The position numbers and the translations under genes are program-made. Positions 15,021 through 34,377 of a stretch of DNA of 57,323 bases are shown here, one piece after another. A model generated the notes under the pieces. That model searched no databases. It was given only the letters and a program-made list of their open reading frames with translations, and had not been told where the DNA came from. Origin of the DNA: Candidatus Aenigmatarchaeota archaeon (GTDB taxonomy: Archaea > Aenigmatarchaeota > Aenigmatarchaeia > GW2011-AR5); NCBI GenBank assembly GCA_043799385.1, contig JAZDNV010000030.1, positions 1 through 57,323 of the forward strand. Direction: 5' to 3'. How positions within the stretch are numbered: the first letter of the stretch is position 1; every line of letters begins with the position of its first letter.

Positions 15021-15893
15021 ATGCTGGCTGCAAAGAGCGAAACCGACCTTGCAGAACTTGAAAACAAGAGCATATTCATCCTGAGGGAGGTCAAATCGCG
15101 GTTCAAAAAACCTGCGGTATTGTGGAGCACTGGAAAGGACTCCACAACCATGCTCTGGCTCATAAAAAGAGCATTTTTCGGCGAGATTCCGTTTCCTGTG
15201 ATTCATATCGACACCGGCTATAAGCCGCCAGAAATCTACCAGTTCAGGGATAAGCTGGCAAAGGAGTGGGGATTCAATCTGCTTGTGGCAAAGAACGATG
15301 CTGAAATAGAAAAGGGCACGTCGCCGTTCACGACCAGCAAGTTCGATTGCTGCACCAGATTAAAGACGATGGCCTTGAAGCAACTGATTGAGAAAGAGCG
15401 CTTCGATGCAATCATTGTGTCGATAAGGCGAGACGAACATGGAATCAGGTCATACGAAAGGTACATGAGCCCGAGGGATAAGGAATTCAGGTGGAAAATC
15501 TTCCAGAAAGAGGCAGCAAGGACAGGCGATTCCGGCTTCAAGTCGTTGCAGGACACGGAGTTGAGCGGCTGGATGCTCTTTGAAACTGATTTTGGCCCTG
15601 AATGCAACCATGTGCGAGTCCATCCGATACTCCACTGGTGCGAGATAGACGTATGGCGATATATAAGGCAGGAAAAAATGCCAATCAATCCCTTGTATTA
15701 TTCAAGGAACGGCGAGCGGTATCGAAGTCTAGGCTGCAAGCCCTGCACGAATCCTATAAAATCTGACGCATCGAGCATAGACGAGATCATAACTGAACTG
15801 GAGACGACAAGTGAAGAAGAACGTGCAGGAAGAGCACAAGACAAGGAAGACGAGTACACGATGCAAAAACTAAGAGCATTGGGTTACATGTGA
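15021..15893 (+). CDS. cysD: Sulfate adenylyltransferase subunit 2 (PAPS reductase superfamily)
   Basis: LENKSIFILRE, WSTGKDS PP-loop, HIDTG, RRDE, RYRSLGC..CT, ERAGRAQD. Confidence 0.85.
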   Translation: MLAAKSETDLAELENKSIFILREVKSRFKKPAVLWSTGKDSTTMLWLIKRAFFGEIPFPVIHIDTGYKPPEIYQFRDKLAKEWGFNLLVAKNDAEIEKGTSPFTTSKFDCCTRLKTMALKQLIEKERFDAIIVSIRRDEHGIRSYERYMSPRDKEFRWKIFQKEAARTGDSGFKSLQDTELSGWMLFETDFGPECNHVRVHPILHWCEIDVWRYIRQEKMPINPLYYSRNGERYRSLGCKPCTNPIKSDASSIDEIITELETTSEEERAGRAQDKEDEYTMQKLRALGYM

Positions 15894-15897
15894 TGCA

Positions 15898-16671
15898 ATG
15901 ATTGAACTTTTTATAATACTGGCAGCGCTGGCACTAATCATGGAGATTGTCGATTCTTCGCTAGGCATGATGTACGGCACGATACTAAGCCATGTGCTCA
16001 TCGGATTCGGCTTCGATCCGCTCATTGTCGTACCTTCTATACTAATATCGCAGGCGATCGGCGGCATAGCTGGCACCATATTCCATAATAAATTAAAAAA
16101 TGCAGATTTTAACGGACTTACACGCGATACAAAAATAGTTTTAGCCGTAGTGGCGCCAGGACTAGTCGGAGTTTTAATAGGAACTTTGGTTGCAATCTCT
16201 CTGCCCAAGCTTTTCATGCAAACATATATAGGAATCCTTGTCGTGCTGATGGGCATTCTATGCATATTTCCTGTCAGATACGCATTTAGGTGGTGGAAGA
16301 TGTACGCCATAGGATTACTTTCTTCTTTCAACAAGTTTGTAACCGGCGGCGGATTCGGACCCATAACCAGCACAGGAAAGATAGTAGGCGGGTTGAAGTC
16401 AAAAGTATCTGTTGCAACGACTACTTATGCGGAAGTGCCAATATGCATTGTTTCTTTCATTATTTACATGATTTCCAAAGGCTTGTCGGACCCGTTCTTT
16501 ACCATATCGCTATGCGCAGGTGCCTTTATAGGCGGGATTATGGGGCCGTTCGTAACTAGCCGATTCAATCAGAATAAGCTAAGGAAAGCAGTCGGTATTC
16601 TGGCGATAATCGCTGGTGTGTGGGTTTTGTTGAAAATCGTGCTGAACCTGAACATAAGCGGCGGTATCTAG
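15898..16671 (+). CDS. TauE/SafE family sulfite exporter
   Basis: DSSLGMMYG and GGGFGP repeats, about 8 TMs. Confidence 0.85.
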   Translation: MIELFIILAALALIMEIVDSSLGMMYGTILSHVLIGFGFDPLIVVPSILISQAIGGIAGTIFHNKLKNADFNGLTRDTKIVLAVVAPGLVGVLIGTLVAISLPKLFMQTYIGILVVLMGILCIFPVRYAFRWWKMYAIGLLSSFNKFVTGGGFGPITSTGKIVGGLKSKVSVATTTYAEVPICIVSFIIYMISKGLSDPFFTISLCAGAFIGGIMGPFVTSRFNQNKLRKAVGILAIIAGVWVLLKIVLNLNISGGI

Positions 16672-16703
16672 CATTATAAATTTATTTATTATCAATAACT
16701 CTT

Positions 16704-17147
16704 ATGGCAACAGATTGCATATTCTGTAAAATTATCAGCGGGGATATTGCCGCTGAACGTATTTATGAAGATGATTATTTTCTGGCTTTCCTAGATGTAA
16801 ACCCAGTTGTCGAAGGGCACATCCTATTGATACCAAAGAAGCATTGTGAAACCATATACGATTTAGGAGAAGGCGAAGTTGAAAAAATTGGAGAAGCGAT
16901 TCAAACGGTTTCAAACAAATTGAAATCCATATTTGGTCCGAACATAAATATCGTAAACACTAGCGGCAAATACGCAAGCCAGTCAATTCTGCATTTCCAT
17001 TTTCATCTGATTCCAAGAAGAAGCGGGGACAGGTTGTGGGATGGGGAAAAATCAAGAATTATTCTTGACAGGAGTTCTGGTTTTGAAAGGATTAAACCAA
17101 CCAAAGAGCAGTTGAAAAAACTGGCAGAAGAGATTAAATCGAATTAA
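16704..17147 (+). CDS. HIT family hydrolase
   Basis: DCIFCKI, GHILLIPKKH, HFHFH triad. Confidence 0.95.
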   Translation: MATDCIFCKIISGDIAAERIYEDDYFLAFLDVNPVVEGHILLIPKKHCETIYDLGEGEVEKIGEAIQTVSNKLKSIFGPNINIVNTSGKYASQSILHFHFHLIPRRSGDRLWDGEKSRIILDRSSGFERIKPTKEQLKKLAEEIKSN

Positions 17148-19182
17148 CAAGGCTCTTGCCGTCCATCTCTTTTGGTATTGTTAGATTAAGTATTGTCAGT
17201 ACAGTCGGCGCTATGTCAATGATTTCAGGGTTTTCTTTCTTGAGCTTAAAATTAGTAAATATAACGCCAGGCACGTGGCTCCTGTCAATCAGGTGATCGC
17301 CTGTCCACTCCTCGCCATTATCCATTAGAACGCTGTCCGCAGTTCCGCCCATTGCTGTTTGCCACGACATCCTGTAGCCTGGCTCGAAACCGATAACTAT
17401 ATCCGGCGCATCTTTTACGAATTCGCCGCTGTAAATTTCTTCTCCCTTGTACAAGCTGGTGATAACCTTTTTGCTGTTTTTGTCGTCTTTCAGCTTGCTT
17501 AATTTCTCTATAATCTCGTCGAGAAGCGATTCGTAATTGCTTTGCTCAACGATGCCCTGCGCTTCGCGGCCTTTGAGGTTGACATAGATGCTGCTGAATC
17601 CGAGCGCGTATGCCTCAGTCCTGCTCCAGTCAACGTGACTGAATAACTCGCCTGCATCATTATCCGGTTTGTTCGCCAATGTCATGTAGCCATTCTCGAC
17701 TAACCAATTGTTTATACTTACTGCACGCTCAAAACTGCTGAAGCCATGGTCAGAGAATACTATAAGCGAAGTATTGCCATCTATCTTCTGAAGAACCTCA
17801 CCGATAAACTTATCTTTATCCGCGTAATATTCTTCTATCTCCTTTGGTATCTTGATTCTGCTTGAATTTGACAAAACCTTGTTTTCCCAGAAGATATGCT
17901 GAAGCCTGTCATTAGCGTCAAAAGCAAAAGCGTAGACGCCGCTATTGAAGTTATCGAACTCGTGCCAGAACATCTTTGTTCTTTCATCTTCAATCTGTCT
18001 GACTTGTTCGAGAAATATATTCTTGCCTATCATGTTTTCCGTCACGGCCTTTGTGTCTTCAGGCATGCCAAGCGTGTAGTAAAATCCTATCGCAGCCGTC
18101 AGTTCTTTTCCGTAACTCTTCGGATAAGTGATATCCGTGATTTGATTTTTCGGGTCTATCTGTACGGATGTAACGTACATGCTGAACTCTGGTGTTGTAT
18201 TTAACAGATAGACTTTGAATATGCCATAAATATTCGTGAAGAAATCAACGCTGAATTTAACTTCAATCCAGTCGCTCCAGCCACCGACGCTGACCGTATG
18301 TTCGGAACCGTCGATTGAAATAATTGCGGCGTTTCCTTCTAATTTTATTCTCATCGGCTTTTCAATCTCTGCTCCGTTTTTTATCCTTGGGCCAAATAGC
18401 TTAGTTTCAAAAGTGTTTCCTTTTTCGACCTCGATTACTCTTTTTGCTCCTTCTGACTCTTTATCGTATCCACCAGACGTATAAAAACTGTAGCTGTTCA
18501 GAAAGCCCTTTATGTCAACGACTCCGAGCCCTGAGAGCATTTTTCCCTTTATTTTCTCAGGCGGGAACGTAACCGGCCATCTTATGACCGTTGTTGCAAT
18601 GCCTGCATTACTGGTTATTCGCCAGAACGGAACGCCCTTCATCGTTGATTCATATTGGGTCCATCTCAAACCTGGCGTTTCATCAGCCAGATTCAGTTTT
18701 AGCAGATAGTTTTTTGGGTCTCTTTTTATGAAATCAAATATCCCGTATTTTCCAGGGTTAGAGCCAGTCGCAGCTGCGCTCCATGCAACAGGCGTCTCCG
18801 GTGGTATTGTGCTCTCCAGCCTTGAATAACTACCGATCTCTTTCAGCTTTTTGAAATTTGGCAGCTTTCCCTCGCTGATTAGTTCGTCTATAACGTTTGG
18901 GTCAAGCGCATCTATGCCTATCAGAAGAATCTTTTTTGTCGTCGTGTTTTCACCCGCGTGCATGATAAGAATAAAATAGCTGACAAAGATTATAAGTATT
19001 ATAACCAAAGCTGCTGCAAATGTTTTGTTGCTGAATAACCTTGATATCAACCCCTTGATTTTTTTGGATATGGCCATAATGAAGCCAAGCGCTATGCCAA
19101 AAATCAAAAGTATAACTTGCCAGAAACTTGTCACTAGAAACCCGCCTGTTCCAGGGTCTATATATTCGACTTTCCTGAACAT
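17134..19182 (-). CDS. Alkaline phosphatase superfamily phosphodiesterase-like protein with N-terminal YIDPGTG membrane segment
   Basis: IGIDALD, PPETPVAWS..TG, SDHGF, GDH, DIAPT. Confidence 0.88.
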   Translation of the reverse strand: MFRKVEYIDPGTGGFLVTSFWQVILLIFGIALGFIMAISKKIKGLISRLFSNKTFAAALVIILIIFVSYFILIMHAGENTTTKKILLIGIDALDPNVIDELISEGKLPNFKKLKEIGSYSRLESTIPPETPVAWSAAATGSNPGKYGIFDFIKRDPKNYLLKLNLADETPGLRWTQYESTMKGVPFWRITSNAGIATTVIRWPVTFPPEKIKGKMLSGLGVVDIKGFLNSYSFYTSGGYDKESEGAKRVIEVEKGNTFETKLFGPRIKNGAEIEKPMRIKLEGNAAIISIDGSEHTVSVGGWSDWIEVKFSVDFFTNIYGIFKVYLLNTTPEFSMYVTSVQIDPKNQITDITYPKSYGKELTAAIGFYYTLGMPEDTKAVTENMIGKNIFLEQVRQIEDERTKMFWHEFDNFNSGVYAFAFDANDRLQHIFWENKVLSNSSRIKIPKEIEEYYADKDKFIGEVLQKIDGNTSLIVFSDHGFSSFERAVSINNWLVENGYMTLANKPDNDAGELFSHVDWSRTEAYALGFSSIYVNLKGREAQGIVEQSNYESLLDEIIEKLSKLKDDKNSKKVITSLYKGEEIYSGEFVKDAPDIVIGFEPGYRMSWQTAMGGTADSVLMDNGEEWTGDHLIDRSHVPGVIFTNFKLKKENPEIIDIAPTVLTILNLTIPKEMDGKSLVNSI

Positions 19183-19231
19183 ATGTAATAATAGTCATCC
19201 TTGGTTATAAATTTCTCTGATGCGTATAGAA

Positions 19232-19435
19232 CTAGGTTATTATAATCCTGTTTTTACCCTTGAATTCGCTGCCTATCTTCGTCTGGTGAGGAATATGGCC
19301 CTCCTTCAGCAAACGGAATTCATCCATCGTCTCCTTCTCCAGATGCTTCTTGCTGTGCCTTTTCAGCGTTTCCCAGCTTGAGAACTCGGCTTTGCAGCGA
19401 ACGCAAACGAGCTTTATCTTCTTCGTTTTCTTCAT
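19232..19435 (-). CDS. Small C2H2 zinc-finger protein
   Basis: CVRC..EF.....LKRHSKKH; start reassigned to ATG 19435. Confidence 0.7.
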   Translation of the reverse strand: MKKTKKIKLVCVRCKAEFSSWETLKRHSKKHLEKETMDEFRLLKEGHIPHQTKIGSEFKGKNRIIIT

Positions 19436-19475
19436 GATATGATTAACCAAGAAAAATATTAAAACAGAATGGAAG

Positions 19476-19567
19476 TAGCTTTGCACAAAAAGTGATGGAC
19501 ATCATACAGATGTTCATCGACGATAGGCTATCGTCGCAAAGACGATTGCCTGTTTTTGTGCAAAGCT
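19476..19567. repeat. Y-shaped palindromic element, copy 1 (MITE/REP-like or ncRNA)
   Basis: 15-bp terminal IR AGCTTTGCACAAAAA/TTTTTGTGCAAAGCT enclosing two hairpins; homologous to 34233-34332. Confidence 0.75.
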
Positions 19568-19605
19568 AAAGGAAGGGTTAAAAGCTTTGTTCCTTTCTAT
19601 ATATT

Positions 19606-20622
19606 ATGCTTCTTGATAAGTACGAGCCAAAAACGAGCAGGGAGATTGTTGGCAACGAATCTAAGATGAACGAGATCCGCGACTGGATGAAAATCGGTAA
19701 AGGCTCGTTGCTTGTCTATGGCCCTCCTGGATGCGGAAAAACGGTTGCTATCCGTCTTTTGGCAAAAGAGCTCGGCTACGAGATTATTGAAACGAACGCA
19801 AGCGATAACCGCGGCCTGAACGCGATGCGTAAGCTTATTGAATCGTCCAAGCAGAGCAACTTGTTTTTAAGGAAACGGTTGGTTATGATAGACGAGGCTG
19901 AATTGCTCGACTCGACGAAAGGCATAAACGAATTGATGAAAAGCGTTCCGACAATACTAATCGCATCTGACTACGATAGGCGCTTCACCTGCAGAAAGAT
20001 AAGGTTCGACAAGATACCTGCAAATAAGATAGCTCATTTCTTGCGAATCGTTTGCATGAAGGAAAACGTCGAGATGAGCGATTCGTCGCTCTACCAACTG
20101 GCGAGAATGAGCAACGGCGATTTGCGGGCGGCGCTGATTGACATGGAGTTCGGTTTCGGCTACCGCGAACGCGAGGAGAATATATTCGAAAAGCTTCGTA
20201 TGATTTTCAAGACTGATATGAAAAACGCCAGAGAATCGATTCGCGGCAGCGACCCAAAAGAATTATTTCCGTGGATAGAAGAGAGCATACCAGAAGAGTA
20301 CAGCAATATCGAGAACGTTGCTCTGGCATACGATCGCTTATCAAAAGCAGATTTGTTCCGCTCCAGGATAATGAAAAGGCAGGCATGGAACCTTGAGAAA
20401 TACATGTTCGATTTTATCTCTGGTATGCCAAAGTCTCGCGGCTTTGTATTGTATAAGTTGTCAAGCATAAGGAAAATCGACACCAATCCGCTGAGAGAGC
20501 GCATAGCCAAGGAATTGCACATTTCAAAAAAAGAGTCAATCCGATATTTCTATCTCATAAGAATGCTTGCAAAAAAGTGTGATTTAGGGCTCGATGATGT
20601 TACTGAATTATTAAATAGTTAG
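19606..20622 (+). CDS. rfcL: Replication factor C large subunit (short form)
   Basis: DKYEPK, GPPGCGKT, IETNASD.R, IDEAE, GDLRAAL, WIEE, LSKADLF. Confidence 0.85.
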   Translation: MLLDKYEPKTSREIVGNESKMNEIRDWMKIGKGSLLVYGPPGCGKTVAIRLLAKELGYEIIETNASDNRGLNAMRKLIESSKQSNLFLRKRLVMIDEAELLDSTKGINELMKSVPTILIASDYDRRFTCRKIRFDKIPANKIAHFLRIVCMKENVEMSDSSLYQLARMSNGDLRAALIDMEFGFGYREREENIFEKLRMIFKTDMKNARESIRGSDPKELFPWIEESIPEEYSNIENVALAYDRLSKADLFRSRIMKRQAWNLEKYMFDFISGMPKSRGFVLYKLSSIRKIDTNPLRERIAKELHISKKESIRYFYLIRMLAKKCDLGLDDVTELLNS

Positions 20623-21390
20623 ATTTGTGACATTTTTCGGGTCAACGTTCTCATACACTGTCGCCCGGTCGCTTGCAAGGAGTATGCCAAAAACTGCGGA
20701 CGGATAGTTTATTGTAACGTTGTCGACGTTGACGTGCCTGTTCGCGGCCTGAAGCTTTGCGCGGAACCTCAGCAAAAATCCGTTGGTAGTGTTAAGCGAA
20801 ATCGTTTCATTCAGCCAAACGTTCTCTGTCGTGTCGCCGACAAGGCATTTGTATTCGCTCCACGACCCGCTGTAGAAATCTAGGCAGAGGTAGTCGCTTG
20901 ATGTCAGCGTGTCCTCTATGAACCAAGAAAATTTCAGCGTTGCGTTTTTTATGTTAATTGGATTTGCCATGGTCAGCGACGAGTCAGTTATTGGCCCTTC
21001 TGCCTCGGCTGAATAGGAGCCGTGTATCGCCCGCCTTGACGAGTATGACCATCTAGAGCCAAAGTTCCATAATGAATTGACGACTTCAAAGCTATCGTAG
21101 AATGATGTCACGCAGCTAACGGTCCTATTAACGAACAGATAATAGCCGATGCCAGCCAACCGCTGTTTGCTGAAATGTATAAAACCGTCTAAATTCTTGC
21201 TGGCGTCATCGCAGCTTGATTCTTCCAGTAATCTGTTCAGGTTATTTTTTATGTTGGAGAAATAGTAATCCTCGTTCACCATCGCTATTTCTGACGTATC
21301 GACTTCATAATAACCACGCAGCAGAACAGATATGGCCAGCAGAAACCCTGAAATTATCACTGCTGAAATAAGAAACCACTGACCCTTCAT
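20611..21390 (-). CDS. Pilin-like surface protein with class III signal peptide
   Basis: MKG/QWFLISAV plus hydrophobic helix; beta-sandwich-like insert. Confidence 0.55.
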   Translation of the reverse strand: MKGQWFLISAVIISGFLLAISVLLRGYYEVDTSEIAMVNEDYYFSNIKNNLNRLLEESSCDDASKNLDGFIHFSKQRLAGIGYYLFVNRTVSCVTSFYDSFEVVNSLWNFGSRWSYSSRRAIHGSYSAEAEGPITDSSLTMANPINIKNATLKFSWFIEDTLTSSDYLCLDFYSGSWSEYKCLVGDTTENVWLNETISLNTTNGFLLRFRAKLQAANRHVNVDNVTINYPSAVFGILLASDRATVYENVDPKNVTNLTI

Positions 21391-21686
21391 ACAATCACTA
21401 CCTGGGCGTGCGGCGTCTTTGATACATATAATATGTTATCCTCCTCGACGAATTTTTTCTTCAGCATCATTCCGATGATCTCTTTTCCAACCGCGTTCAC
21501 TATTGTCGCGGATTTTATCAGCTGCGTTGCTTCGTCCTCATCGCAGAGTTTTTCAGAATAAAAGTTTTCATCTATTATCAGTTGCAGGCCGTTGTCATTA
21601 AATTTTTTGCCCACGATGGAAGAGTCTGATATTGCTAGGAGTAGTTCTCCGCCCTGCTTGAACAATCTGTAGGAGAATTTTTTCAT
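21387..21686 (-). CDS. DUF424 family protein
   Basis: LLAISD..IVGKKF, FY, ATIVNAVG, PHAQ. Confidence 0.85.
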   Translation of the reverse strand: MKKFSYRLFKQGGELLLAISDSSIVGKKFNDNGLQLIIDENFYSEKLCDEDEATQLIKSATIVNAVGKEIIGMMLKKKFVEEDNILYVSKTPHAQVVIV

Positions 21687-21867
21687 TTTCAAAACCTCAG
21701 ATGAATTTCATTCCCTTGGGTTTTGAAAAGTCATTGTCAGATGACATTTTCAAAACACCTTATAAACTTCATTTATGGTGGCTTTGAAAAGAAGTCCGTA
21801 AGACTTCATTTTCAAAACACCATATGCCGTATAACTGTTTTGAATTGATATGCCACAATGGCATCTC
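21684..21867. repeat. Tandem array of three ~61-nt double-hairpin units
   Basis: CATTTTCAAAAC at 21684, 21745 and 21807, each paired with a downstream (G)TTTTGAA and followed by a short variable hairpin. Confidence 0.8.
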
Positions 21868-21876
21868 ATATATAAT

Positions 21877-22278
21877 CTATATCGTTTTGAGGTATCTTTT
21901 CGCGCCGCATGCCTCGCACTTCAGCTGCAACAATCGGTCATCTTTCTGCATTATCGTGTCCGGTTTGCCGCACTCTTCGCATAAAACGAATTCCTTTACG
22001 TATTCGGCTATCCTCTGGTTTATTAAATTCGTTGAGACTTTGCCCTGCAGTATCAGCTCTTCGCCGCGTGTGCTGCCAGGCACGGCTAGTTCTTTAAATA
22101 AAAATTTTGCCAGATGCTTTGGCTCTCTTCTCAACGTCTTTGCAATCTCGGAGAAATTCCTTATGAAAGTCTGGCGGCCGGTGAAAACGTCTGCTAGCGG
22201 AATCTCGAATCTTTCCTTTTTCGTCAGGTCCGGCAGGTTCTGCTTCGCTCGCTCCAGCAATTTTTTGTATTCTTCCAT
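21877..22278 (-). CDS. eif2b: Translation initiation factor aIF2 beta subunit
   Basis: ERFEIP, TFIRNF, LRREPKHL, CEECGKPDT, CEACGA. Confidence 0.96.
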   Translation of the reverse strand: MEEYKKLLERAKQNLPDLTKKERFEIPLADVFTGRQTFIRNFSEIAKTLRREPKHLAKFLFKELAVPGSTRGEELILQGKVSTNLINQRIAEYVKEFVLCEECGKPDTIMQKDDRLLQLKCEACGAKRYLKTI

Positions 22279-22290
22279 TAACTCACCATA

Positions 22291-22674
22291 TTATTCACCG
22301 AATTTATAAAGCCCTACTCCGGATTTTTCCATATACTTCATCTTCGCGGATTTTATCGTGCCAGTCACGCCAAGTATCTTTATTATGACCTTCTTTTCGC
22401 TTATGATTTGTATTAGCGAAAGCGCCGCACGAACTTGCTCGACATAATCGTTGCCGCATTTTATAACGCCGCGCTGGTTCTCCTCGTCGTAAAGGCTCTT
22501 TATCAGCCAAGGCTTTGCCAGCGACACGTTCAATTCACCTAGGAAACTGAGCATGCTGTCCCAGTTTGCGTCCATGATGTCATCATAATTTATCTTTCCA
22601 TCCGATATCACTTCAAAGACTATGTATCTCTTTCCCGACCGCAGGACCGGTGGCAGCATCTTCGGTTCAGACAT
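22291..22674 (-). CDS. rnp2: RNase P protein Pop5/Rpp14
   Basis: LPPVLR..KRYIVFEV, LGVTGTIK. Confidence 0.92.
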   Translation of the reverse strand: MSEPKMLPPVLRSGKRYIVFEVISDGKINYDDIMDANWDSMLSFLGELNVSLAKPWLIKSLYDEENQRGVIKCGNDYVEQVRAALSLIQIISEKKVIIKILGVTGTIKSAKMKYMEKSGVGLYKFGE

Positions 22675-22686
22675 TTTATCACTTCG

Positions 22687-23379
22687 CTACTCAACTACGC
22701 TCACGCCCTCAAACCTTTTGCCGGCTAATTTCTCTCTATTCGCCTTAATCATCTCTTCTGGTATCGTTGACGTGGTTGTTATTGCATCGCCCAGCTCCAG
22801 ACCGAGTAAATGTGCAATCGACGCGAGTTCGCGACCAGTGCGCATTCCCCATTTACTGACTGCAGCGGAAGTCGTCACTAATTTCGCGCCGTAACCCTTA
22901 GCCAATTTAACGTTTCTCTGCATCGCTGAAAGTATATGCACTCGTCTCTTCTTGTAGGATTCAAGTATCTCGCGGAAGTTTATCTCTATCGCAACGTTAT
23001 TCTCCTTTGCAGCCTTCGTGCATATATGGTCAAGACCTGAATCTTTGCGCCCGAGCTCTGGATGGCATAGGATATCGATCAGCGGATTCTCGCACGCTGC
23101 GCGGTTTATGTCATAATCGCCTCCATGGACCATCAATATTTCCGCTTTATTTCTTGACTTCTTCGCGGTTCGCTCGAGCTCTTCAACGCTGTTCGGCTTC
23201 AATATGATGCACGATACTATGTCTATTCCGTCTATTTTCGTTAATTCTTCTGTCCTGTCATAATACCTAGCTATTCCTATTCCTGCAAGATTCAGTCGCT
23301 TCGCAAACTCTGCTACTTCTTCCACCGTATTCTCGCCTATAGAAAGGCTCGTGTGCACGTGCATGTCGTAGAATGGCAT
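22687..23379 (-). CDS. rnp3: RNase P protein Rpp30
   Basis: PHP-like DMHVH, NRAACEN..IDIL.HPE, AIEINF; adjacent to Pop5 and eL15. Confidence 0.92.
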   Translation of the reverse strand: MPFYDMHVHTSLSIGENTVEEVAEFAKRLNLAGIGIARYYDRTEELTKIDGIDIVSCIILKPNSVEELERTAKKSRNKAEILMVHGGDYDINRAACENPLIDILCHPELGRKDSGLDHICTKAAKENNVAIEINFREILESYKKRRVHILSAMQRNVKLAKGYGAKLVTTSAAVSKWGMRTGRELASIAHLLGLELGDAITTTSTIPEEMIKANREKLAGKRFEGVSVVE

Positions 23380-23460
23380 TGTATCACCAAATCTGCTATT
23401 AATAATATTATATAGAATTTAATCAGGAATCTTTAAAAATCAGGACTAACGCAAATGATT

Positions 23461-23916
23461 TTACCGTTCTCGTGATTTCTTTCCTGCAGACGTCAGGCCG
23501 CGATAAACGCGCCTTCTCTGACCGCATATCCAGTTTATCTTTTTGTCATTTGCGATGACCGGATGCGTAGGGTCGACAAGTATCACTTCAAAGAACTTGT
23601 TTTTGCCGTCCTCGCCGATGTAATAACTGTTCAAAACCTCGAGATTCGGGAATTTTCTCGATGCTCTTTTCTCTGCTATCGATTGCAGCGACTGCATTGG
23701 CGTGAAAAACCGGCCGGACTTGCTAGGCTTGCGCGCCTTTCTTATCATAGGCCTCTTGCGGCCACCCTTGCCTATCCTTGTCCTAACCATCACATAACCC
23801 TGTTTTGCCTTGTAGCCTAGACTCCTTGCTCTAGTGAGTCGACTGGGCTTGTCTACTTTTATGACTACAGGTTCTTTTCTCCATTTCTTTGCTTTTTCCT
23901 TGTAGAAGTCTTTCAT
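23461..23916 (-). CDS. rpl15e: 50S ribosomal protein L15e
   Basis: [34 protein letters not shown]; start reassigned to ATG 23916. Confidence 0.96.
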
Positions 23917-24066
23917 AGAATTCCTCTTAATTTCATGTAAGTTTAAATATTTTAAAATCACCCCATAATGTGATTTTAATATCAAAATACCGCTGTATTT
24001 TAATACGTTAATCAACTCGATGGTTTAAATATTTAAGGAATGATATAAAAAAATAAAGGTGATGAA

Positions 24067-24300
24067 ATGAATTCAGCTGTCAAGATGATAATCGGATTGC
24101 TGATCTTCGTCGCAGGAATAGTGTGGTACGCGGCAGGACCGCTGAACCTAAAGGGACTTGAAACGCTTGGCAACGCCTTGTCCGCTTTGTGGACAGTTTT
24201 CCTCGGCGTGTTCGGCCTGTTCCTGATATTCCTCGGTCTGATAGTAGCATGGATCGAGTATGAAGATCTTAAGTGGGAAAAAAAAGAGAGGAAGAAGTGA
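24067..24300 (+). CDS. Small two-TM membrane protein
   Basis: GGTGA SD, two hydrophobic helices, T-rich tract after stop. Confidence 0.75.
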   Translation: MNSAVKMIIGLLIFVAGIVWYAAGPLNLKGLETLGNALSALWTVFLGVFGLFLIFLGLIVAWIEYEDLKWEKKERKK

Positions 24301-24351
24301 TTTTTTTCTTTTTACATCAATCTTAATATTTTTTGATGTCTTATTTCTAAT

Positions 24352-25500
24352 ATGTTCATAAGTACCAGAAAGAAGGCCGCATTTCCGAGCTTGAACATAA
24401 AAACGAAGATAGACCTCATAGGCGAAAGCTTCTTCGGACCGTCTTCTTCCATATTTGTCGGGCATTTCGGCTATCCTGACGTATTCGTAGGTCCGATGGC
24501 TTCCATAGAATACTCGTCTGAGCAAGATGATCCGAGCAAGTGGTTCGGAAAAAGTTATGATGAAATAATCCAATTGCGCTCATTGCTGCTGCGTTCGAAA
24601 TACAAGCAGAACATAAAATCCACAGAACGTTTCATCGGAGAAAATAGGGAAATCGTGCTGGCAAAAAAACCTACGGACGTGGAACTAACGTTTGTGAAAA
24701 AACCTTCTTACTCGATGACATTCTCGAATTTTGTAAACCCGGTCGGTCCTTCGGCGGCATTGAAAGAAATGAGGCTGGCTGAAAATCCTAAAATACCGAA
24801 TGCGGTAGAGAAAATAGTGAATGATGATATAAAGGCAGGAAATGCGGCGTGCCTGCTGTATAAGAAAGGCGAAGACGTCTACAGAATCACAAACATACTC
24901 TCATCCGGAGCGGTCGGCATGAATAAAAACAAGAAACTAGTGCCGACTCGCTGGTCAATCACAGCAGTAGACGACATGATAGCAAAGAATCTGATGGGCA
25001 GCATAAGATGTCATAAGTCCGTTAATGATTTTCTAGTTTTTTCAAGCGATTACATGGACAACCACTTCACAATACTTTTCACGCCAGGCTCTTGGCAGTT
25101 CGAGAACTTTGAAGCGTGGGCGCCAGGCAGCAACTGGTGCTTTTCATCGTCTGTAGAAATCTCTGAAGAATACGAACCTTTCTCAGGCCGCAGCGATTAT
25201 GCAGAAAGCCAGGTAGGCGGCTACTATGCGTCACGACTGGCAATTTGTGAAGCGCTAAACGCAATGAAGAGACAGGCAAGCGTTATCGCGATTCGCGAGA
25301 TAGGCGAAGATTATTCCATGCCTTTAGGCGTTTGGCAGGTTCGCGAGAACGTAAGAAACGCATTTAGAAAAAGACCAGAGAGCTTTTCAAGAAAGGATGA
25401 CGCGCTAAAATACGTGTCCAGCAGGCTCAGATTGCCATTCAGGGAATACATAAAAAGAAGCAAAATACTACAGCAAAAGAGATTGGGCGATTTCTTTTAA
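24352..25500 (+). CDS. nreA: Nre family DNA repair protein
   Basis: SIFVG..GYP.V.VGP, LVPTRWSITAVD, GGYYASRL, PLGVWQVRE, C-terminal PIP box QKRLGDFF. Confidence 0.92.
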   Translation: MFISTRKKAAFPSLNIKTKIDLIGESFFGPSSSIFVGHFGYPDVFVGPMASIEYSSEQDDPSKWFGKSYDEIIQLRSLLLRSKYKQNIKSTERFIGENREIVLAKKPTDVELTFVKKPSYSMTFSNFVNPVGPSAALKEMRLAENPKIPNAVEKIVNDDIKAGNAACLLYKKGEDVYRITNILSSGAVGMNKNKKLVPTRWSITAVDDMIAKNLMGSIRCHKSVNDFLVFSSDYMDNHFTILFTPGSWQFENFEAWAPGSNWCFSSSVEISEEYEPFSGRSDYAESQVGGYYASRLAICEALNAMKRQASVIAIREIGEDYSMPLGVWQVRENVRNAFRKRPESFSRKDDALKYVSSRLRLPFREYIKRSKILQQKRLGDFF

Positions 25501-25533
25501 AATGTTCTGCCTAATTAATTAAAAGGTGATGAA

Positions 25534-25794
25534 ATGGCATTCGATAGGACAAGAAGCGGGGATGTAAAATTCGAGACAATAAAAAGCGAGGAGATAAAAT
25601 TCAAGGAAAATAACTTCATCGAGATAGCCAGGAAAAAGGCTACCGGTCCGAACGGCGAGACTATATTCATATCCATCAGCCGCGGGTTCGTGACGTTCAA
25701 CGGCGAAAAGAAATACAAAACATCCGTCACAATACCTGTAGACGCTGTAGAAGTAGTAGACTTCATCACGGCCAAGCTCAAGGATATGCTATGA
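25534..25794 (+). CDS. Conserved archaeal hypothetical protein, possible PC4/PUR-like ssDNA-binding fold
   Basis: SD GGTGA; beta-strand run followed by C-terminal helix. Confidence 0.6.
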   Translation: MAFDRTRSGDVKFETIKSEEIKFKENNFIEIARKKATGPNGETIFISISRGFVTFNGEKKYKTSVTIPVDAVEVVDFITAKLKDML

Positions 25795-26213
25795 AGCTGC
25801 ACGATGCAATCGCACTTGCTGATGATAAGGTCAGCAAGAAAGCAGATGGCTATTTCTTGGTTTCGTGCTTTGCGGCCGTCAGGAACGACAAAATAAACGA
25901 ATGGGTCCTGCATTTCTTCAACCCGAAAACGAATAAAACGGTCGATTGCTTTGTCGGCAAAGATGCGGAAATCGGTGAAGTGTCCGATGCGATAAAGGAG
26001 ATGAAAAAGCTTGAAATCGCAAATGTGAAGATATCGGCCGAGCAGGCGCTTAGCAGAGTAGATAAGACCGGCCAGATTTTTATGATTCTGCACAATTGTG
26101 TATGGACAATAAACGTGATAGAAACGGACATGTCTGTGACCAACTACGAGATAGACGCAAATAGCGGAAAGGTAATCAAGAAAGATTCATCAAATCTTGT
26201 AAAGATTTTATAG
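25791..26213 (+). CDS. Hypothetical protein (PepSY-like C-terminus)
   Basis: ISAEQAL...YEIDANSGKVI. Confidence 0.6.
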   Translation: MKLHDAIALADDKVSKKADGYFLVSCFAAVRNDKINEWVLHFFNPKTNKTVDCFVGKDAEIGEVSDAIKEMKKLEIANVKISAEQALSRVDKTGQIFMILHNCVWTINVIETDMSVTNYEIDANSGKVIKKDSSNLVKIL

Positions 26214-26222
26214 GGCGGTTTC

Positions 26223-26672
26223 ATGTTCTTTCCGAAGGTATACAAATCCTGGAACAACATACAAAAGAAAAAATACAGCGAGATTTTCAAAAAAATCGTG
26301 CTGTCAGGTCTGGTTCTAGACCTCGGTTGCGGGCCGTCGCGTCTGGAAAAGTTCATCAGCGGAAAAATGATAAGGTTGGATGTAGACAAAGCCTGCAAAC
26401 CTGATATTATCGCGAGCGGAGATGAATTGCCGTTCAAGAACGATTCATTCGATGCAGTCATATCAATAGACACCATGCACCTTGTAAAGGGAAGCGATTT
26501 TAAGAGAGTACTGAAACCGCGCGGCCTGGCATTATTTTCGTTATTCTTCAACAAGCAGAATTATGACGATAGGAAAGCAATGCTAATCAAGAAGCTCGAA
26601 AGCTTTGATATAGCAAATGAATTCACAATAGAAGGCAAAGAAAACGAGTACGTCGTTCTTGCAAAGAAATGA
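26223..26672 (+). CDS. Class I SAM-dependent methyltransferase
   Basis: VLDLGCG, LPFKNDSFDAV, RVLKP. Confidence 0.88.
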   Translation: MFFPKVYKSWNNIQKKKYSEIFKKIVLSGLVLDLGCGPSRLEKFISGKMIRLDVDKACKPDIIASGDELPFKNDSFDAVISIDTMHLVKGSDFKRVLKPRGLALFSLFFNKQNYDDRKAMLIKKLESFDIANEFTIEGKENEYVVLAKK

Positions 26673-28328
26673 TCACATCTTCTCCAGCGCCCTGATACCG
26701 AGAAGATTCAAACCGTTCTTGAGGATTATCGATACCGCATCGACCAGAGCCAGTAATTCTTCCTCCCTATCAGAACCTATAACCTTACGGTGCTGATAGA
26801 ATTCGTTGAATGCTGTAGCCAGCTCGAACAGATAGTTTGCAAGGTAGTTCGGCTTCATATCCTCTGCGGATTTTTTTATGACATCCGAGAACATGGAAAG
26901 TTTTTTTACTATCGCCATCTCTTTGTCATATGCGCCTACACGGTACTTTTTTCTGCTCTTCCTCAGAATCGACCGCGCACGAGCATAAGTATATTGCAGA
27001 TAAGGGCCTGAATCGCCTTCGAAGTTGAGCACGTCAGACCAGTCGAAAAGAATCGTTTTGTTGTTGTCCCTGCTAAGCATGGAGTATTTTATCGCAGATA
27101 GCGCAATGTCCTTTGCTACATTTGCTTTGCCAACTTTTCTCTTCCTTATCTCCTTCTCTGCTTTTGCTGTGCCATCATCCCTAAGGTCGTCGTATAAGAC
27201 GACAGAGCCTTCGCGCGAGGACATTTTTCCGCTCTTAAGCATCACGAGTTCGTAGGCAAGGTGATGGCTCTTTTCCGCCCAGTTCTTGTTAATCATTTCA
27301 AATGTTTTGAATAATTGCTGAAAATAAAGTTTTTGCTCTGAGCCTACGACGTGTACGCATCTATCAGGCTTTTCCTTGAACTCCAATTCTGCTAAGCCTA
27401 AATCCTTCGTCGAGTAGAGCGGGTCCTCGTTGCTCTTTAGTATTATGAACACGCCAAGATCGTAGCCGCGCAAATCCACAATCATCGCTCCCTCGCTCAT
27501 CATCGCTATCTTCTTCCTGAGCAGGCTTTTTGCAATTTTCATCCCGCGCTCGAAGACCTTGCTCTCGAAGTATAGTTTATCGAATTTCACGCCGAAATCT
27601 TTGTACACGTTACCGAAGTAATCCAAACTCCACTGCCTTGTTTTTTTCCACAGTTTCATCAGTTTTTTGCTGCTCTTGTAGAGGTCGCTGCTAATTTTAT
27701 TGACCTCTTCCTCCAGTTTTTTGCTGCCTTCTATCCTCTTATTGGCTTTTGCATAAACGATGCCAAGCCAGACGCCGTTACTCATATTTTTCGGCTTTTT
27801 TAATTTCAGGTTCTGCAGACCCCATAAGCATTTTGCCACATGCATTCCGATATCGCCCTGATAATTCGCTCGGATGACCGTATAGCCGTTGTGCTCCATT
27901 ATTCTTGACAGCGATTCGCCAATGCATATGTTTCTAACATGGCCAACGTGAAACGCTTTGTGCGTGTTCGCATGGCAGAATTCGATCATGACCTTTCCTT
28001 TCTTATCGCCTTTGCAGTAACGTTCTTTATCGTTAAGTATCTGCTTTATGACGAATCTTCCCAGTTTATTCCAGTCAGCGTAGAAATTTATGTAAGGTCC
28101 GGACGCCTCGACGCGTTTTATCAGCTCGCTGAACATTATCTCGCCGGTTATCGGCTTCACGATTTCTTTTGCTATCTCCACAGGATTTTTCTGCATTTTC
28201 TTTGCCAGGGAAAAACACGGAAAAGCAAGATCGGCGCCAATCTCTTTTGGCGGTATCTCCAATACGCTTTCGCCAACTGCATTTTTTACTGTCTTCTCAC
28301 ACTCTTCCCGGAATTTCTGGAAACTCAT
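26673..28328 (-). CDS. argS: Arginine--tRNA ligase
   Basis: GPYINF, HVGH, KMSSREG, GDSGPYLQY. Confidence 0.97.
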   Translation of the reverse strand: MSFQKFREECEKTVKNAVGESVLEIPPKEIGADLAFPCFSLAKKMQKNPVEIAKEIVKPITGEIMFSELIKRVEASGPYINFYADWNKLGRFVIKQILNDKERYCKGDKKGKVMIEFCHANTHKAFHVGHVRNICIGESLSRIMEHNGYTVIRANYQGDIGMHVAKCLWGLQNLKLKKPKNMSNGVWLGIVYAKANKRIEGSKKLEEEVNKISSDLYKSSKKLMKLWKKTRQWSLDYFGNVYKDFGVKFDKLYFESKVFERGMKIAKSLLRKKIAMMSEGAMIVDLRGYDLGVFIILKSNEDPLYSTKDLGLAELEFKEKPDRCVHVVGSEQKLYFQQLFKTFEMINKNWAEKSHHLAYELVMLKSGKMSSREGSVVLYDDLRDDGTAKAEKEIRKRKVGKANVAKDIALSAIKYSMLSRDNNKTILFDWSDVLNFEGDSGPYLQYTYARARSILRKSRKKYRVGAYDKEMAIVKKLSMFSDVIKKSAEDMKPNYLANYLFELATAFNEFYQHRKVIGSDREEELLALVDAVSIILKNGLNLLGIRALEKM

Positions 28329-28369
28329 AATTACCGATTATCACCTTTTGTTTTTCAAGGATATAAAAA

Positions 28370-28894
28370 CTAGTTTTTCGTTTTGAGTAATTTATAGACA
28401 GGAATATACCCGGCACCTATGTCATAGAGCAGCAATACAAGCCATATCTCCCATTCACCCGTACAAACGCTCACCAAAAGGGCTGTTATCTCCAGAAACG
28501 GTCGGTGGCTCAGAATTTCATAAAATAGTTTCTTCTTTTTTTCGAACCTGTCGCTCACTATCTCATCGGCAATGCCAGCAAGGACAAATGATAGGAACAA
28601 GATAACGTCAATTGAGCCGAAACTAAAGAAATATGTTGCTATAAAAAATGTAATTATGCCCAGCATATGCCCGTAATAATCTATCTTTCTGCAGATTACC
28701 AGACCTACTATCACGGCAAGAGCCAAAGACATTGTTACTGGTATCTCTTTTGCTATGAATGCTATCAGAAATCCATAAACAATTGCGGATGATACGACAA
28801 CGGGTTTCGGTATTCTGGTTTTTCTGTCATAATAATCGTCGACGATTCTTGTAAAAAAACCTACAATAATCGAAAGAAAAATTACAGGATTCAT
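28370..28894 (-). CDS. Hypothetical membrane protein
   Basis: Multi-TM, KID..GH and DE motifs; overlaps upstream stop. Confidence 0.7.
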   Translation of the reverse strand: MNPVIFLSIIVGFFTRIVDDYYDRKTRIPKPVVVSSAIVYGFLIAFIAKEIPVTMSLALAVIVGLVICRKIDYYGHMLGIITFFIATYFFSFGSIDVILFLSFVLAGIADEIVSDRFEKKKKLFYEILSHRPFLEITALLVSVCTGEWEIWLVLLLYDIGAGYIPVYKLLKTKN

Positions 28895-30195
28895 ACCAAC
28901 GCCGCAACTATTAACGGGAATATTATGGTTGCATCGCCTTCAACGAACACATGATTCGCGTCTTTGTTTATCTTGCTCCAGGAAACTGCTTCTTTGGGCC
29001 TTGCGCCTGACAAAGAACCGTCATATTCGCTGCCCGTCGACACGTAAACGGCATAATCCAGACCGCCGCGAACGATGTTCACTCCGATTAGATGGTGCTT
29101 TGCAACGCCGCCACCTAGGATTATACCGCCTGTCTTCTCTGAATTATAGACCATGTCCGCCAGCTTATTCATATCAGCCGTGACGTCAATGCCAAACTCG
29201 CTGTTTTCTTTTTCGAAGTTCTTGAAAAAATATAAATCGAGACCGAGCGCACCGTCTGTTATGGCTGGGCAAAATATTGGTATGTTATTTTTAGTTGCCC
29301 AATACATTATCGAATTCTCATCGTCTATCCTCTTTCCGAGCTCAAAAATCAATTCTGACGGCGAGATCATCTTGCCGCTGCTCTTCTGTCTGCAAAGCAT
29401 TTCGGCAAAGAATGTGTGCAATTCCTTTTCCAGAATGCTGTAGCGGTCGTTCGGCACAAATATGTTTCCGATTCTGTTGACGCCGTTTCTGTGCAAATCC
29501 GCATCGTCTGCGTTGAAATCACCCAAAAGAAATGGTAATTTGGATTTTATCAAATCCTCTTCTATTGAACCCACGGACGTTATCACTACATCTACCAACT
29601 TGTTTTTTACTAAATAGGCAAAGGTTTCCCTTAATCCCGAGGAAACCATGTTTGAAGTAAAAGAGATGAATATCGTAGCATTATTCTTTTTCATCTTCTT
29701 GATTATATCGACTGCTCGTGACAGGTTTGTTGCCTGGAAACCAACATTCTTCATGCTCCCTACAAATTCTGCAATATTCTTTTTGCTGTAATCCACACCA
29801 CCTATTTTTTCATATTCCAGGGGTTCGCAACCCCTTCTCAGTAAATTCCTTCTCATCTCCTTCATTCCTAGACTTGATTTCAGGAAAGACTCAACGCTTT
29901 CGATATCGAATTCCTTGCATGAAAATATATCAACTGTTATATAGCCCTTTTCAGGATAGGTGTGGATAGTTATATTGCTCTCTGTAATTGCAACAAATGC
30001 GGTTATCCCGCGCTCATCATCACCGGGTTCATGCCTGACAACAAGTACTTCGCTTATCATTTTCATTTCTAGCATCTTGACAAGCTCTTCTATCGTTTCC
30101 TTTATTTTTCGTTCATTGTCAAGGCTATCCGAATCGCAGCCGAAGCCGTCTATTATAAAATGGTTCCCTAAACCGTGTGATGAATTAATCTTCAT
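28891..30195 (-). CDS. Fusion of pyruvoyl-dependent SpeD-like decarboxylase and deoxyhypusine synthase
   Basis: N-term G.HFIIDGFGC..ITESNITIHTYPE..VDIFSC; C-term GFQA, TSNMVSSGLRE, NRIGN, GGGVAKHH, DGSLSGARPKEAVSWSK. Confidence 0.9.
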   Translation of the reverse strand: MKINSSHGLGNHFIIDGFGCDSDSLDNERKIKETIEELVKMLEMKMISEVLVVRHEPGDDERGITAFVAITESNITIHTYPEKGYITVDIFSCKEFDIESVESFLKSSLGMKEMRRNLLRRGCEPLEYEKIGGVDYSKKNIAEFVGSMKNVGFQATNLSRAVDIIKKMKKNNATIFISFTSNMVSSGLRETFAYLVKNKLVDVVITSVGSIEEDLIKSKLPFLLGDFNADDADLHRNGVNRIGNIFVPNDRYSILEKELHTFFAEMLCRQKSSGKMISPSELIFELGKRIDDENSIMYWATKNNIPIFCPAITDGALGLDLYFFKNFEKENSEFGIDVTADMNKLADMVYNSEKTGGIILGGGVAKHHLIGVNIVRGGLDYAVYVSTGSEYDGSLSGARPKEAVSWSKINKDANHVFVEGDATIIFPLIVAALV

Positions 30196-30304
30196 TGAAT
30201 CACCTTATGATACCTAATCGTATGTAAGAAGTCGTTTATGGTTGCGTCATTGCCTTGAACGTCTTGAAAACCATGTTATAAATATGAACAGAATGCTTAA
30301 AACT

Positions 30305-31459
30305 CTATCTTCCGCTCTTTATCGAAATTATGTCCCCGTCCTTTAGTTTATAGTCAGCGGAAACGTTCTTTCCTGTCCTCGCATCTACGGCTGCTATAAA
30401 TTTTTTTCCTATGTCCTGGTGGACCTCGTAGGCAAGATCCAGCGCCGTCGCCCCTCTCTTCAACAAGAGGGCGTCCGGAAGGACATTGTTGTATTTGTCA
30501 GTGAACTTATGCTGGTCGGCAACAGGATAAACGACAATCATCCCCAGCAAGTCGAATACCGTTCTATTCAGCGTTTCCTGCACGCCGGTATTCCTTCGCT
30601 CAATGAATTTCTTTATGAAGTCTAATGCATTTTTCTGCTTATCGCTCAATTCGCCTGTTATCTCAAATGCATTAGCGCCTGGAATATATTTTATCAGATT
30701 CTCCTTCGCCGCTTCTCGCAACGCCAGCTCGATTTCTGTGGATGTTGGGATGATGTTGTATTCTTGAAATTCGCTTTTCATCTTTTCTATATTCTTCTCA
30801 GAACTAAGGACATCAACTTTATTCGCAGCTATGAGCATCGGCTTGGATATGAGCCGCAAGTTATTTATGAACCGCAATTCATCGCTCTCTCTCCAGTTCC
30901 TTGTGTTCTCGTCCAGCGAAGATTCTGACAACGCTTTTTTAATATCATTTTCATCGATGCCAAGCCCTGAAAAGCGCTTTGCCAGAATTTCAAAGAAATT
31001 CTTGTCGCTGAGTATTTTCCAGTCCTTTTCCATTATGTTCAATAGCCAGTAATCCAGTTCTCGTTCGAGCATTCGCACGTTCTGAGACGGGTCGAAACCA
31101 TCAGCAGCGTTTCCTTCGCTGTCCGTTTTTCCTGATGCGTCAAGAACATGAATGAATGCTTTCGTTTGCATTATGTCATCGAGGAAAGCGTTGCCGCGAC
31201 CGCGACCGAGATGCGCATCGGGCACGAGTCCTGCAACATCCCACAGCTTCATGGGAACAAAACGCACGCCGTCAACGCATTTCTTGCATTGCAGTTTTAG
31301 TTCGGTGCAGGGGCATTTCACGGTTACATGCGCCAATCCTTCGTTCGGTTCCAGCGTCGTGAAGGGGTACGGCGCGATCTTTACGTCTTTCAACGTTGCG
31401 GCTTTGAAGAACGTCGATTTTCCGGAATTCGGGCATCCAACCAATCCGATTTCAATCAT
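30305..31459 (-). CDS. ychF: OBG/YchF family GTPase/ATPase with TGS domain
   Basis: GCPNSGKST, YPFTT, DVAGLV, ANKVD, LPDA..TGS. Confidence 0.9.
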   Translation of the reverse strand: MIEIGLVGCPNSGKSTFFKAATLKDVKIAPYPFTTLEPNEGLAHVTVKCPCTELKLQCKKCVDGVRFVPMKLWDVAGLVPDAHLGRGRGNAFLDDIMQTKAFIHVLDASGKTDSEGNAADGFDPSQNVRMLERELDYWLLNIMEKDWKILSDKNFFEILAKRFSGLGIDENDIKKALSESSLDENTRNWRESDELRFINNLRLISKPMLIAANKVDVLSSEKNIEKMKSEFQEYNIIPTSTEIELALREAAKENLIKYIPGANAFEITGELSDKQKNALDFIKKFIERRNTGVQETLNRTVFDLLGMIVVYPVADQHKFTDKYNNVLPDALLLKRGATALDLAYEVHQDIGKKFIAAVDARTGKNVSADYKLKDGDIISIKSGR

Positions 31460-31534
31460 AAAGAAAATTTATCGAGAATGTTTAAAAACCCTCAGTTTTA
31501 AGAGCATTTCCATCATACCTTATTCGTGATAAAA

Positions 31535-32236: not shown

Positions 32237-32253
32237 GTTTTCTTTTTTTATTT
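32237..32253 (+). terminator. Oligo-T archaeal terminator candidate
   Basis: gttttcttttttta directly after the stop codon. Confidence 0.4.
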
Positions 32254-32264
32254 ATAATTATAAA

Positions 32265-33157: not shown

Positions 33158-33240
33158 GTAATCAACTTTTTTGGTTAAACTTCGCTGCATAAAGACGTAA
33201 ACACACAGACGCACTTTGTGCGTCATTTTGCTCACGAAGT

Positions 33241-33744: not shown

Positions 33745-33843
33745 AGTCTCACTAGACTATATTTATCCACCGCTTTATAAATAAATTTTTACGTGCATGC
33801 TAATCAAAATAAACATTTTTATATCAGCGGATGAAATAATAAT

Positions 33844-34176: not shown

Positions 34177-34232
34177 AGGCATTGCGCTTGCGATCATCAA
34201 TGGCCATCATACGAATATGCAATACAATCAGG

Positions 34233-34332
34233 TAGCTTTGTTGAAAAACTAGGCTATCATCCTGCTTCTAGCGAGGATAGCCTATTCGTCAATGGGCATC
34301 ATAAAGATGCCCATTACTTTTTCAACAAAGCT
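34233..34332. repeat. Y-shaped palindromic element, copy 2
   Basis: 15-bp IR AGCTTTGTTGAAAAA/TTTTTCAACAAAGCT, two inner hairpins, flanked by CAATCAGG direct repeat. Confidence 0.75.
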
Positions 34333-34377
34333 CAATCAGGGATAATCTTAAAATAGAAGGAAAGAGAAAAATAGATT

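Follow-up and report, generated by a model that had tools for sequence, protein, structure and literature searches.

A short two-hairpin repeat with IS903-type ends in the genome of an Aenigmatarchaeota archaeon is very probably a MITE

A stretch of about 90 nucleotides that can close on itself as a stem carrying two inner hairpins, and that recurs on the same contig with other letters in its stems, raises the question of what kind of element it is; a structured non-coding RNA, a REP-like DNA element and a MITE had all been offered as options when the locus was first read. The locus lies in a contig of 57,323 nucleotides (JAZDNV010000030.1 of assembly GCA_043799385.1, here contig C29), referred to below as the window, which is part of the 786-kb, 31-contig genome (91% complete) of a Candidatus Aenigmatarchaeota archaeon. 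The analysis described here indicates that the element is very probably a non-coding MITE of about 90 bases with IS903-type ends, moved in trans and residing between the genes of this DPANN archaeon.

The first copy in the window (copy 1) is composed, in order, of AGCTTTGCACAAAAA, GT, GATGGACATC-ATACA-GATGTTCATC, GACGAT, AGGCTATCGTC-GCAAA-GACGATTGCCT, G and TTTTTGTGCAAAGCT. The inverted repeat at its left end (left TIR, AGCTTTGCACAAAAA, 19477..19491, + strand), which is common to the 28 copies in the genome, pairs perfectly with the right TIR (TTTTTGTGCAAAGCT, 19553..19567, +) and encloses hairpin A (19494..19518, +), with a 10-bp stem containing one G-T pair and a 5-nt loop, and hairpin B (19525..19551, +), with an 11-bp stem containing one mismatch and a 5-nt loop. 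The linker GACGAT between the hairpins (19519..19524, +) is unpaired, and its family consensus is GAYGG-like. The original prediction described this outer stem and the two hairpins correctly, with a start at 19476 in place of 19477 and a linker of five nucleotides in place of six. It also reported a flanking direct repeat, AATGGAAG/AAAGGAAG, which is real and has an actual length of 9 bp: the left target-site duplication (AATGGAAGT, 19468..19476, +) agrees with the right one (AAAGGAAGG, 19568..19576, +) at 7/9 positions at offset 0. The alternative pairing of ATCGTC with a second GACGAT is present in copy 1 and is not a feature of the family; the linker copies at least 6 nt of the hairpin-B arm in 2/28 copies.

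The second copy (copy 2, 99 bp, 34234..34332, − strand), which belongs to the subfamily with the TIR AGCTTTGTTGAAAAA and scores 95.6 bits against the covariance model described below, has the layout of copy 1 with other letters in its stems, as had been claimed. Its TIRs are located at 34318-34332 and 34234-34248, hairpin A at 34291-34315, the linker at 34284-34290 and hairpin B, the inner loop of which is longer, at 34251-34283, all on the − strand. The duplication on the downstream side in element orientation (34225..34233, ACCTGATTG on the − strand) matches that on the upstream side (34333..34341, CCCTGATTG on the − strand) at 8/9 positions. The compensatory change between the TIRs of the two window copies, CAC/GTG vs TTG/CAA, is likewise real. 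Folding energies of −51.0 and −49.7 kcal/mol were obtained for copy 1 and copy 2, respectively (z = −10.4 and −8.7), and none of the shuffled sequences folded as well (0/200). The neighbors of copy 1 are those originally named, an RFC-like AAA+ ATPase gene and, divergent from it, a small ORF whose resemblance to a C2H2 zinc finger is weak and falls below the Pfam cut-off; a tRNA search of the window found none.

A search of the whole genome, first with the end motif and then with a profile, identified 28 full copies of 83–99 bp, located in both orientations on 15 contigs, as well as two decayed remnants (C10:11604-11625 and C21:20380 onward). The TIRs follow a 15-bp consensus, AGCTTTG-NNN-AAAAA, and their cells are paired at 96.9% in the 28 copies and at 97.6% in an alignment extended to 50 copies. 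Pairwise identity among the 28 copies lies between 43% and 99% (median, 67%), and two subfamilies can be distinguished: the first, which includes copy 1, is marked by GCAC in its ends and by a short hairpin-B loop, and the second, which includes copy 2, by GTTT or GTTG in its ends and by a hairpin-B loop that is mostly longer. Some copies show features of both. Contig C24 begins with a half copy, which has the flank of the copy at C26:16651-16733, near the end of contig C26, and is for that reason regarded as the same copy. C24:1-64 and C26:16631-16733 hold this one copy with its flank, such that the two contigs overlap and can be merged; the break in the assembly at this point was probably caused by the repeat.

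The flanks of the copies carry the evidence for the class of the element. When all 28 copies were oriented and the nine bases on each side were compared at offset 0, a 9-bp duplication was perfect in 6/28 copies and agreed at 8 or more positions in 15/28 and at 7 or more in 21/28, with 6 or fewer matches in the remaining 7/28. In a control in which the left flank of one copy was compared with the right flank of another (n = 756), 1.3% of the pairs reached 7 matches and none reached 8. DDE transposases characteristically leave a target duplication of constant length directly outside the inverted repeats of the element that they insert; therefore, a 9-bp duplication at the tips of the TIRs places the family among the MITEs. 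Two of the copies are 99% identical and have a perfect duplication each, a sign of recent activity. Of the options offered at the outset, the MITE is the one that agrees with the TIRs, the 9-bp duplications, the 28 dispersed copies, and the patchy spread and the empty site found in relatives, which are described below.

ORFs of at least 80 aa were called using a crude script of our own, by which the coding share of the genome is 91%. According to these calls, 17/28 copies overlap no ORF and the other 11 touch only the ends of ORFs, mostly through over-extended starts, which are an artefact of the script, or through doubtful ORFs of 86–98 aa. No long ORF is split by any of the 28 copies. The sole copy lying wholly inside a short ORF is that at C21:42083-42180; its removal restores no longer frame, and disruption of a gene by this copy was rejected on that ground. 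The flanking genes run in the same direction at 17 copies, are divergent at 9 and convergent at 1, and one copy lies at a contig end; among the 17 copies between genes of the same direction, 10 are in the sense and 7 in the antisense orientation. Copies are usually located 0–20 bp past a stop codon and 27–56 bp ahead of a start codon by the same crude calls, and they appear to sit just beyond the space needed by a core archaeal promoter. The C21:42083-42180 copy and a second one at C21:42617-42704, in opposite orientations and 436 bp apart, bracket a 100-aa ORF that looks membrane-like by eye; the duplication is perfect at the former and absent (3/9) at the latter, and a composite arrangement is possible.

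In the phylum as a whole, an exact two-ended pattern was found in 8/371 genomes, including the present one, with no match for a reversed-pattern control. The covariance model built from the 28 copies detected the family in 13/69 other genomes of the order, namely in 12/43 genomes of the same taxonomic family, in 1/1 genome of a second family and in 0/25 genomes of six other families; in an even class-wide sample, it was found in 4/13 genomes of the home family and in 0/137 others. A scan with such a model had been suggested at the outset; many more copies than the two in the window were obtained, in the own genome by the motif and profile searches and in the order by the model. The distribution is patchy even within genera (3/11 genomes in genus g17 and 1/5 in g10). 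In a BLASTN comparison with 40 relatives, copy 1 had a single weak match, and it was the pattern and the covariance model that were needed to find the family. The two-ended pattern had 0 matches in viral contigs; a looser end pattern picked up 118 chance stretches there, and no covariance-model match was obtained at the 80 loci checked.

From the 13 relatives, 22 distinct copies were collected, in which the duplication agrees at 8 or more of nine positions in 18/22 and is perfect in 10/22, and the closing stem and two hairpins are present in 22/22 folds. One of them, in genome G219, lies 35 bp upstream of an RFC gene, with a perfect duplication (TAAAAACAC) and in the orientation opposite to that of copy 1 in the window. 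The congeneric genome G220 aligns straight over the insertion point with an uninterrupted site, which constitutes a filled/empty pair for this relative's copy and supplies the empty site that the original prediction had proposed to look for. Contigs from four metagenome runs, compared with positions 15500-35400 of the window, were short and mostly diverged pieces and contained no joint at either window copy. Insertions located 35–38 bp upstream of an RFC-like gene are found in two genera (window 19477-19567 and L296:28-155); they differ in orientation and duplication and are therefore regarded as independent events, and their coincidence could be due either to chance or to a preferred landing zone upstream of promoters.

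Some copies in relatives depart from the common form. The G219 copy (L296:28-155, on contig C50 of that genome) contains an extra 33-nt GC-rich hairpin inside the hairpin A loop, representing either an insertion or a grown loop, and other longer matches to the covariance model, of 124–153 nt, occur in G206, G013, G219 and G004. In genome G010, two copies (L072:1501-1589 and L081:1501-1589) retain the two-hairpin layout and have duplications of 8-9/9 with very different, GACACCGTCTAAATAA-type ends, which gives the impression that the transposase sites were exchanged around a retained inner module. A 202-bp stretch with inverted GGCTTTGCCCAAAAA ends in genome G005 (L002:1274-1475, contig C9) is a longer relative outside the coverage of the covariance model.

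The ends of the element point to a known group of insertion sequences. IRL and IRR of IS903B (IS5 family, IS903 group) begin with GGCTTTGTTGAATAAATC and the direct repeat is 9 bp (PMC10569121), and an IS903B copy on a plasmid record (locus L083) has the same ends. Compared with this repeat, the end of copy 2 is identical at 13/15 positions, that of another copy in the genome (GGCTTTGTTGAAAAA) at 14/15 and that of copy 1 at 10/15; in the GTTG subfamily, TIR positions 2-12 are identical to the IS903B repeat, and the subfamily of copy 1 differs from it in the middle, with GCAC for GTTG. A match to a known IS end had been named in advance as speaking against an undescribed element, and the resemblance of the ends to the IS903B repeat, at 13/15 for copy 2, is such a match. 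IS903B and the present family accordingly have similar ends and a 9-bp target repeat in common, and differ in that the latter is a MITE of 83–99 bp without a transposase gene, with a DPANN archaeon as host where IS903B has an enterobacterium. ISL3, the first guess made from the ends, was rejected as the source; the genome has no PF01610 match, and both the ends and the 9-bp duplication agree better with IS903.

A search for the transposase itself gave related elements without identical ends. The own genome, at 91% completeness, contains no match to PF01609, PF01610, NF033579 (transpos_IS5_2) or PF13737, and NF033579 has no match in five MITE-rich relatives. An autonomous IS with ends identical to those of the MITE, for which a search had originally been proposed as a check, was found neither in the own genome nor in the 69 order genomes, 5 genome-contig loci or 80 metagenome loci; the ends seen there are related and non-identical. 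Transposases with PF01609 matches in genome G218 (335–467 aa) have no matching ends nearby and were set aside. PF13737 is carried by 5/70 genomes of the order, and IS5-family elements of about 1.3 kb were recognized at the three order loci examined (L053-L055). Two of the transposases, of 307 and 325 aa, were scored against transpos_IS5_2 and reached 170 and 153 bits, respectively, against a cut-off of 140. These nearest transposases are 22.7% identical to that of IS903B; their best identity, 30%, is with an IS5-family gene on a Sulfolobus plasmid, and their elements have TGCTCTGTTGCA-type ends.

These elements, together with relatives in groundwater and sediment metagenomes, form a set of IS5-family elements of 1.0–1.3 kb (L053, L055, L124, L127, L136) that includes members of the same archaeal order. 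The ends of those in the order read TGCTCTGTTGCAYAAWT, with a 9-bp word, TCATTGTAA, repeated at one of them; the 80 metagenome relatives of the transposase have ends of the form TGCNNTGTTGMATAAWT, with perfect 9-bp duplications at L124 and L127. The duplications are of 9 bp, possibly 8–9 bp (for example, TCATTGTAA, ACATTTTCA and GTTTTAATT), as in the MITE. The likeness of the ends extends further at two places: metagenome element L136 begins with TGCTTTGTTGAATAAATCG and has an 11-base core, GCTTTGTTGAA, in common with the MITE ends, and in genome G005 the IS end equals the MITE end of that genome at 13/16 positions. However, the ends of the IS clade differ from the MITE ends at 3 or more of 16 positions, and the covariance model found no MITE-like hairpins at 93 IS loci. 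The clade is present in 1/13 MITE-bearing and 4/56 MITE-free genomes of the order, which indicates no co-travel. On the basis of sequence, then, the family of the ends is clear, namely the IS903 type. The 1.3-kb elements also differ from the MITE in possessing a second small ORF without a known family. At L053:1942-2247 (+), this divergent ORF of about 90–100 aa lies beside the transposase gene and has no Pfam or NCBIfam match; positions ~1965-2225 of L055, read as DNA and below the 100-aa ORF cut-off, match the same stretch. IS903-type elements do not usually carry an accessory gene.

The inner hairpins were analyzed using the 28 own copies and a MAFFT alignment of 50 copies (28 own and 22 from relatives). 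In the former, 93.7% of cells are standard pairs and double changes occur in 21/37 pairs; none of 500 shuffles reached any of the five measures, and sliding the structure by 1–3 columns reduced pairing to 32–42%. In the latter, 94.7% of cells are paired and double changes occur in 31/36 pairs, including 10/10 in hairpin A and 9/11 in hairpin B, with 0/500 shuffles reaching the observed values, these counts overstating the number of independent events because kin share changes. Between genera, the stems are largely rewritten, with no change in their lengths or in the arrangement of the parts. Under DNA energy parameters, 27/28 copies form at least two hairpins, and the outer stem was scored as closed by the script in 26 of these. 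Hairpin A is shortened in 8/28 copies, and each short form occurs at two or three sites; this recurrence suggests that the element can move without a complete hairpin A.

The outer stem is no more than the pair of transposase sites, and its covariation (CAC/GTG, TTT/AAA and TTG/CAA) would be expected of subfamilies with matched ends. The hairpins are kept more strictly than plain filler needs, so that some function, possibly as RNA, is conceivable. The structure forms on both strands, and mismatches in the stems are balanced between G-T (22) and A-C (19); this balance, together with the random orientation, favors a property at the DNA level over a strand-specific RNA.

It is conceivable, and on the present evidence rather unlikely, that the Y fold of the MITE is kept for RNA or transcription, with the copies serving as two-way terminators, insulators or 3′-end stabilizers, such that only harmless or useful copies persist. 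Either strand would yield a stable hairpin with five U in a row after it, terminator scoring rated hairpin B of copy 1, together with its T-run, as terminator-like, and, by the crude ORF calls, many copies lie in the intervals past stop codons and before the next start codons given above. The inner ends of the TIRs, A5/T5, are invariant in the 28 own copies and nearly so in the 50-copy alignment, in which two of the five A-T pairs are without variation and each of the remaining three is kept in 47-49/50 copies; this conservation needs no RNA role, because the tracts belong to the transposase-binding ends. Against this reading, copies are not enriched between convergent genes (1/27 placeable copies, against 9 between divergent genes), orientation is random (10 vs 7), and G-T mismatches show no excess over A-C (22 vs 19). 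A precedent is the bcr1 repeat of the Bacillus cereus group, which, as described in PMC3184786, is a short mobile intergenic repeat with direct repeats, is transcribed, and has a closing stem and two stem-loops kept by compensatory changes. It differs from the present family in being bacterial and about 155 bp long, with 5-bp direct repeats (PMC3184786); no sequence relation between the two was seen, and the mismatches of the present family are without strand bias.

That the repeats are instead a family of small structured ncRNA genes, present as gene copies and not as insertions, is highly improbable. Strong covariation in all three helices, matched by 0/500 shuffles, and the very stable folds are what such genes would show. 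However, copies are flanked by 9-bp duplications, a congeneric genome has an empty site, the supposed outer stem is an IS903-type inverted repeat, and the spread over 13/69 genomes of the order ignores relatedness. No match at gathering scores was found for the whole window in Rfam 15, the best value around copy 1 being E = 1.9, and neither a fixed orientation (10 vs 7) nor a preference for G-U over A-C was observed; the structured-RNA option of the original prediction was abandoned on these grounds.

A REP- or REPIN-like element, moved by a Y1 transposase (RAYT, IS200/IS605-type) acting on single-stranded hairpins, would likewise be short, hairpin-rich, intergenic and present in many copies, but this second option is scarcely credible, being contradicted by the lack of any Y1_Tnp (PF01797) match at E ≤ 0.1 in the genome, by ends that are long, perfect IS903-type inverted repeats, and by a 9-bp duplication that is the rule here. 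REP/REPIN insertion is not known to leave a duplication of fixed length. Integron attC sites were rejected, as the copies are single, dispersed and flanked by duplications, with no arrays beside an integrase, and a C/D-box or K-turn in GTGATG...CATCGA was rejected, since these letters make up an ordinary hairpin with Watson-Crick pairing.

As an IS903-type MITE, the family joins a class already known from archaea. MITEs are reported in 20% of archaeal genomes, with DPANN members (Altiarchaeum and a Woesearchaeon) among the densest (PMC11602168); the portion of this census considered here makes no mention of Aenigmatarchaeota, this family or inner hairpins, and its supplementary tables may list the family. 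In the literature on MITEs, DPANN, IS903 and archaea that was searched, no title or abstract opening names it.

For such a MITE, to judge by the anatomy of the copies, the 15-bp ends would be the binding and cleavage sites of an IS5-family, IS903-type DDE transposase supplied in trans, which would cut the target with a stagger of 9 bp, and repair of the gaps would leave a 9-bp direct repeat on each side. The transposase itself is postulated: an unassembled or lost IS may mobilize the family, or the family may now be at rest. The inner hairpins would matter to the element as DNA, for example, through cruciform extrusion that joins ends lying about 60 bp apart; alternatively, self-correction of palindromes during replication, or template switching, may keep the hairpins perfect. 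A strand-specific RNA function for the host is a less likely reason for their retention. Copies persist only between genes, typically a few bases past a stop codon or about 30–55 bp ahead of a start codon.

A more specific proposal, put forward tentatively and as the less probable outcome, is that selection acts on the three-way-junction shape as a functional part of the transposon. Cruciforms would fold the short element such that its ends meet in one transposase complex, and RNA of either strand would act as a harmless two-way terminator. The element is shorter than the stiffness length of DNA, and its archaeal host is not known to have the IHF-type bending proteins used by bacterial MITEs. 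If true, this proposal would explain how the shape has outlived a near-complete turnover of hairpin sequence in at least 11 genera, and how the family thrives in genomes without a visible transposase gene.

The kind of element is known and ordinary, and its one unusual trait is the degree to which the two inner hairpins are preserved. For annotation, the covariance model from this analysis finds the family cleanly, and its 28 loci here, like the similar ones in at least 13 related genomes, are better labeled as a MITE family than as candidate RNA genes. For the organism, the copies indicate that a transposon was recently active in an archaeal genome of symbiont type that is very small and densely packed with genes, with insertions just outside promoters and stop codons. 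For the family, the 50 copies with their 31 covarying pairs constitute a natural data set for asking why some MITEs retain an inner fold.
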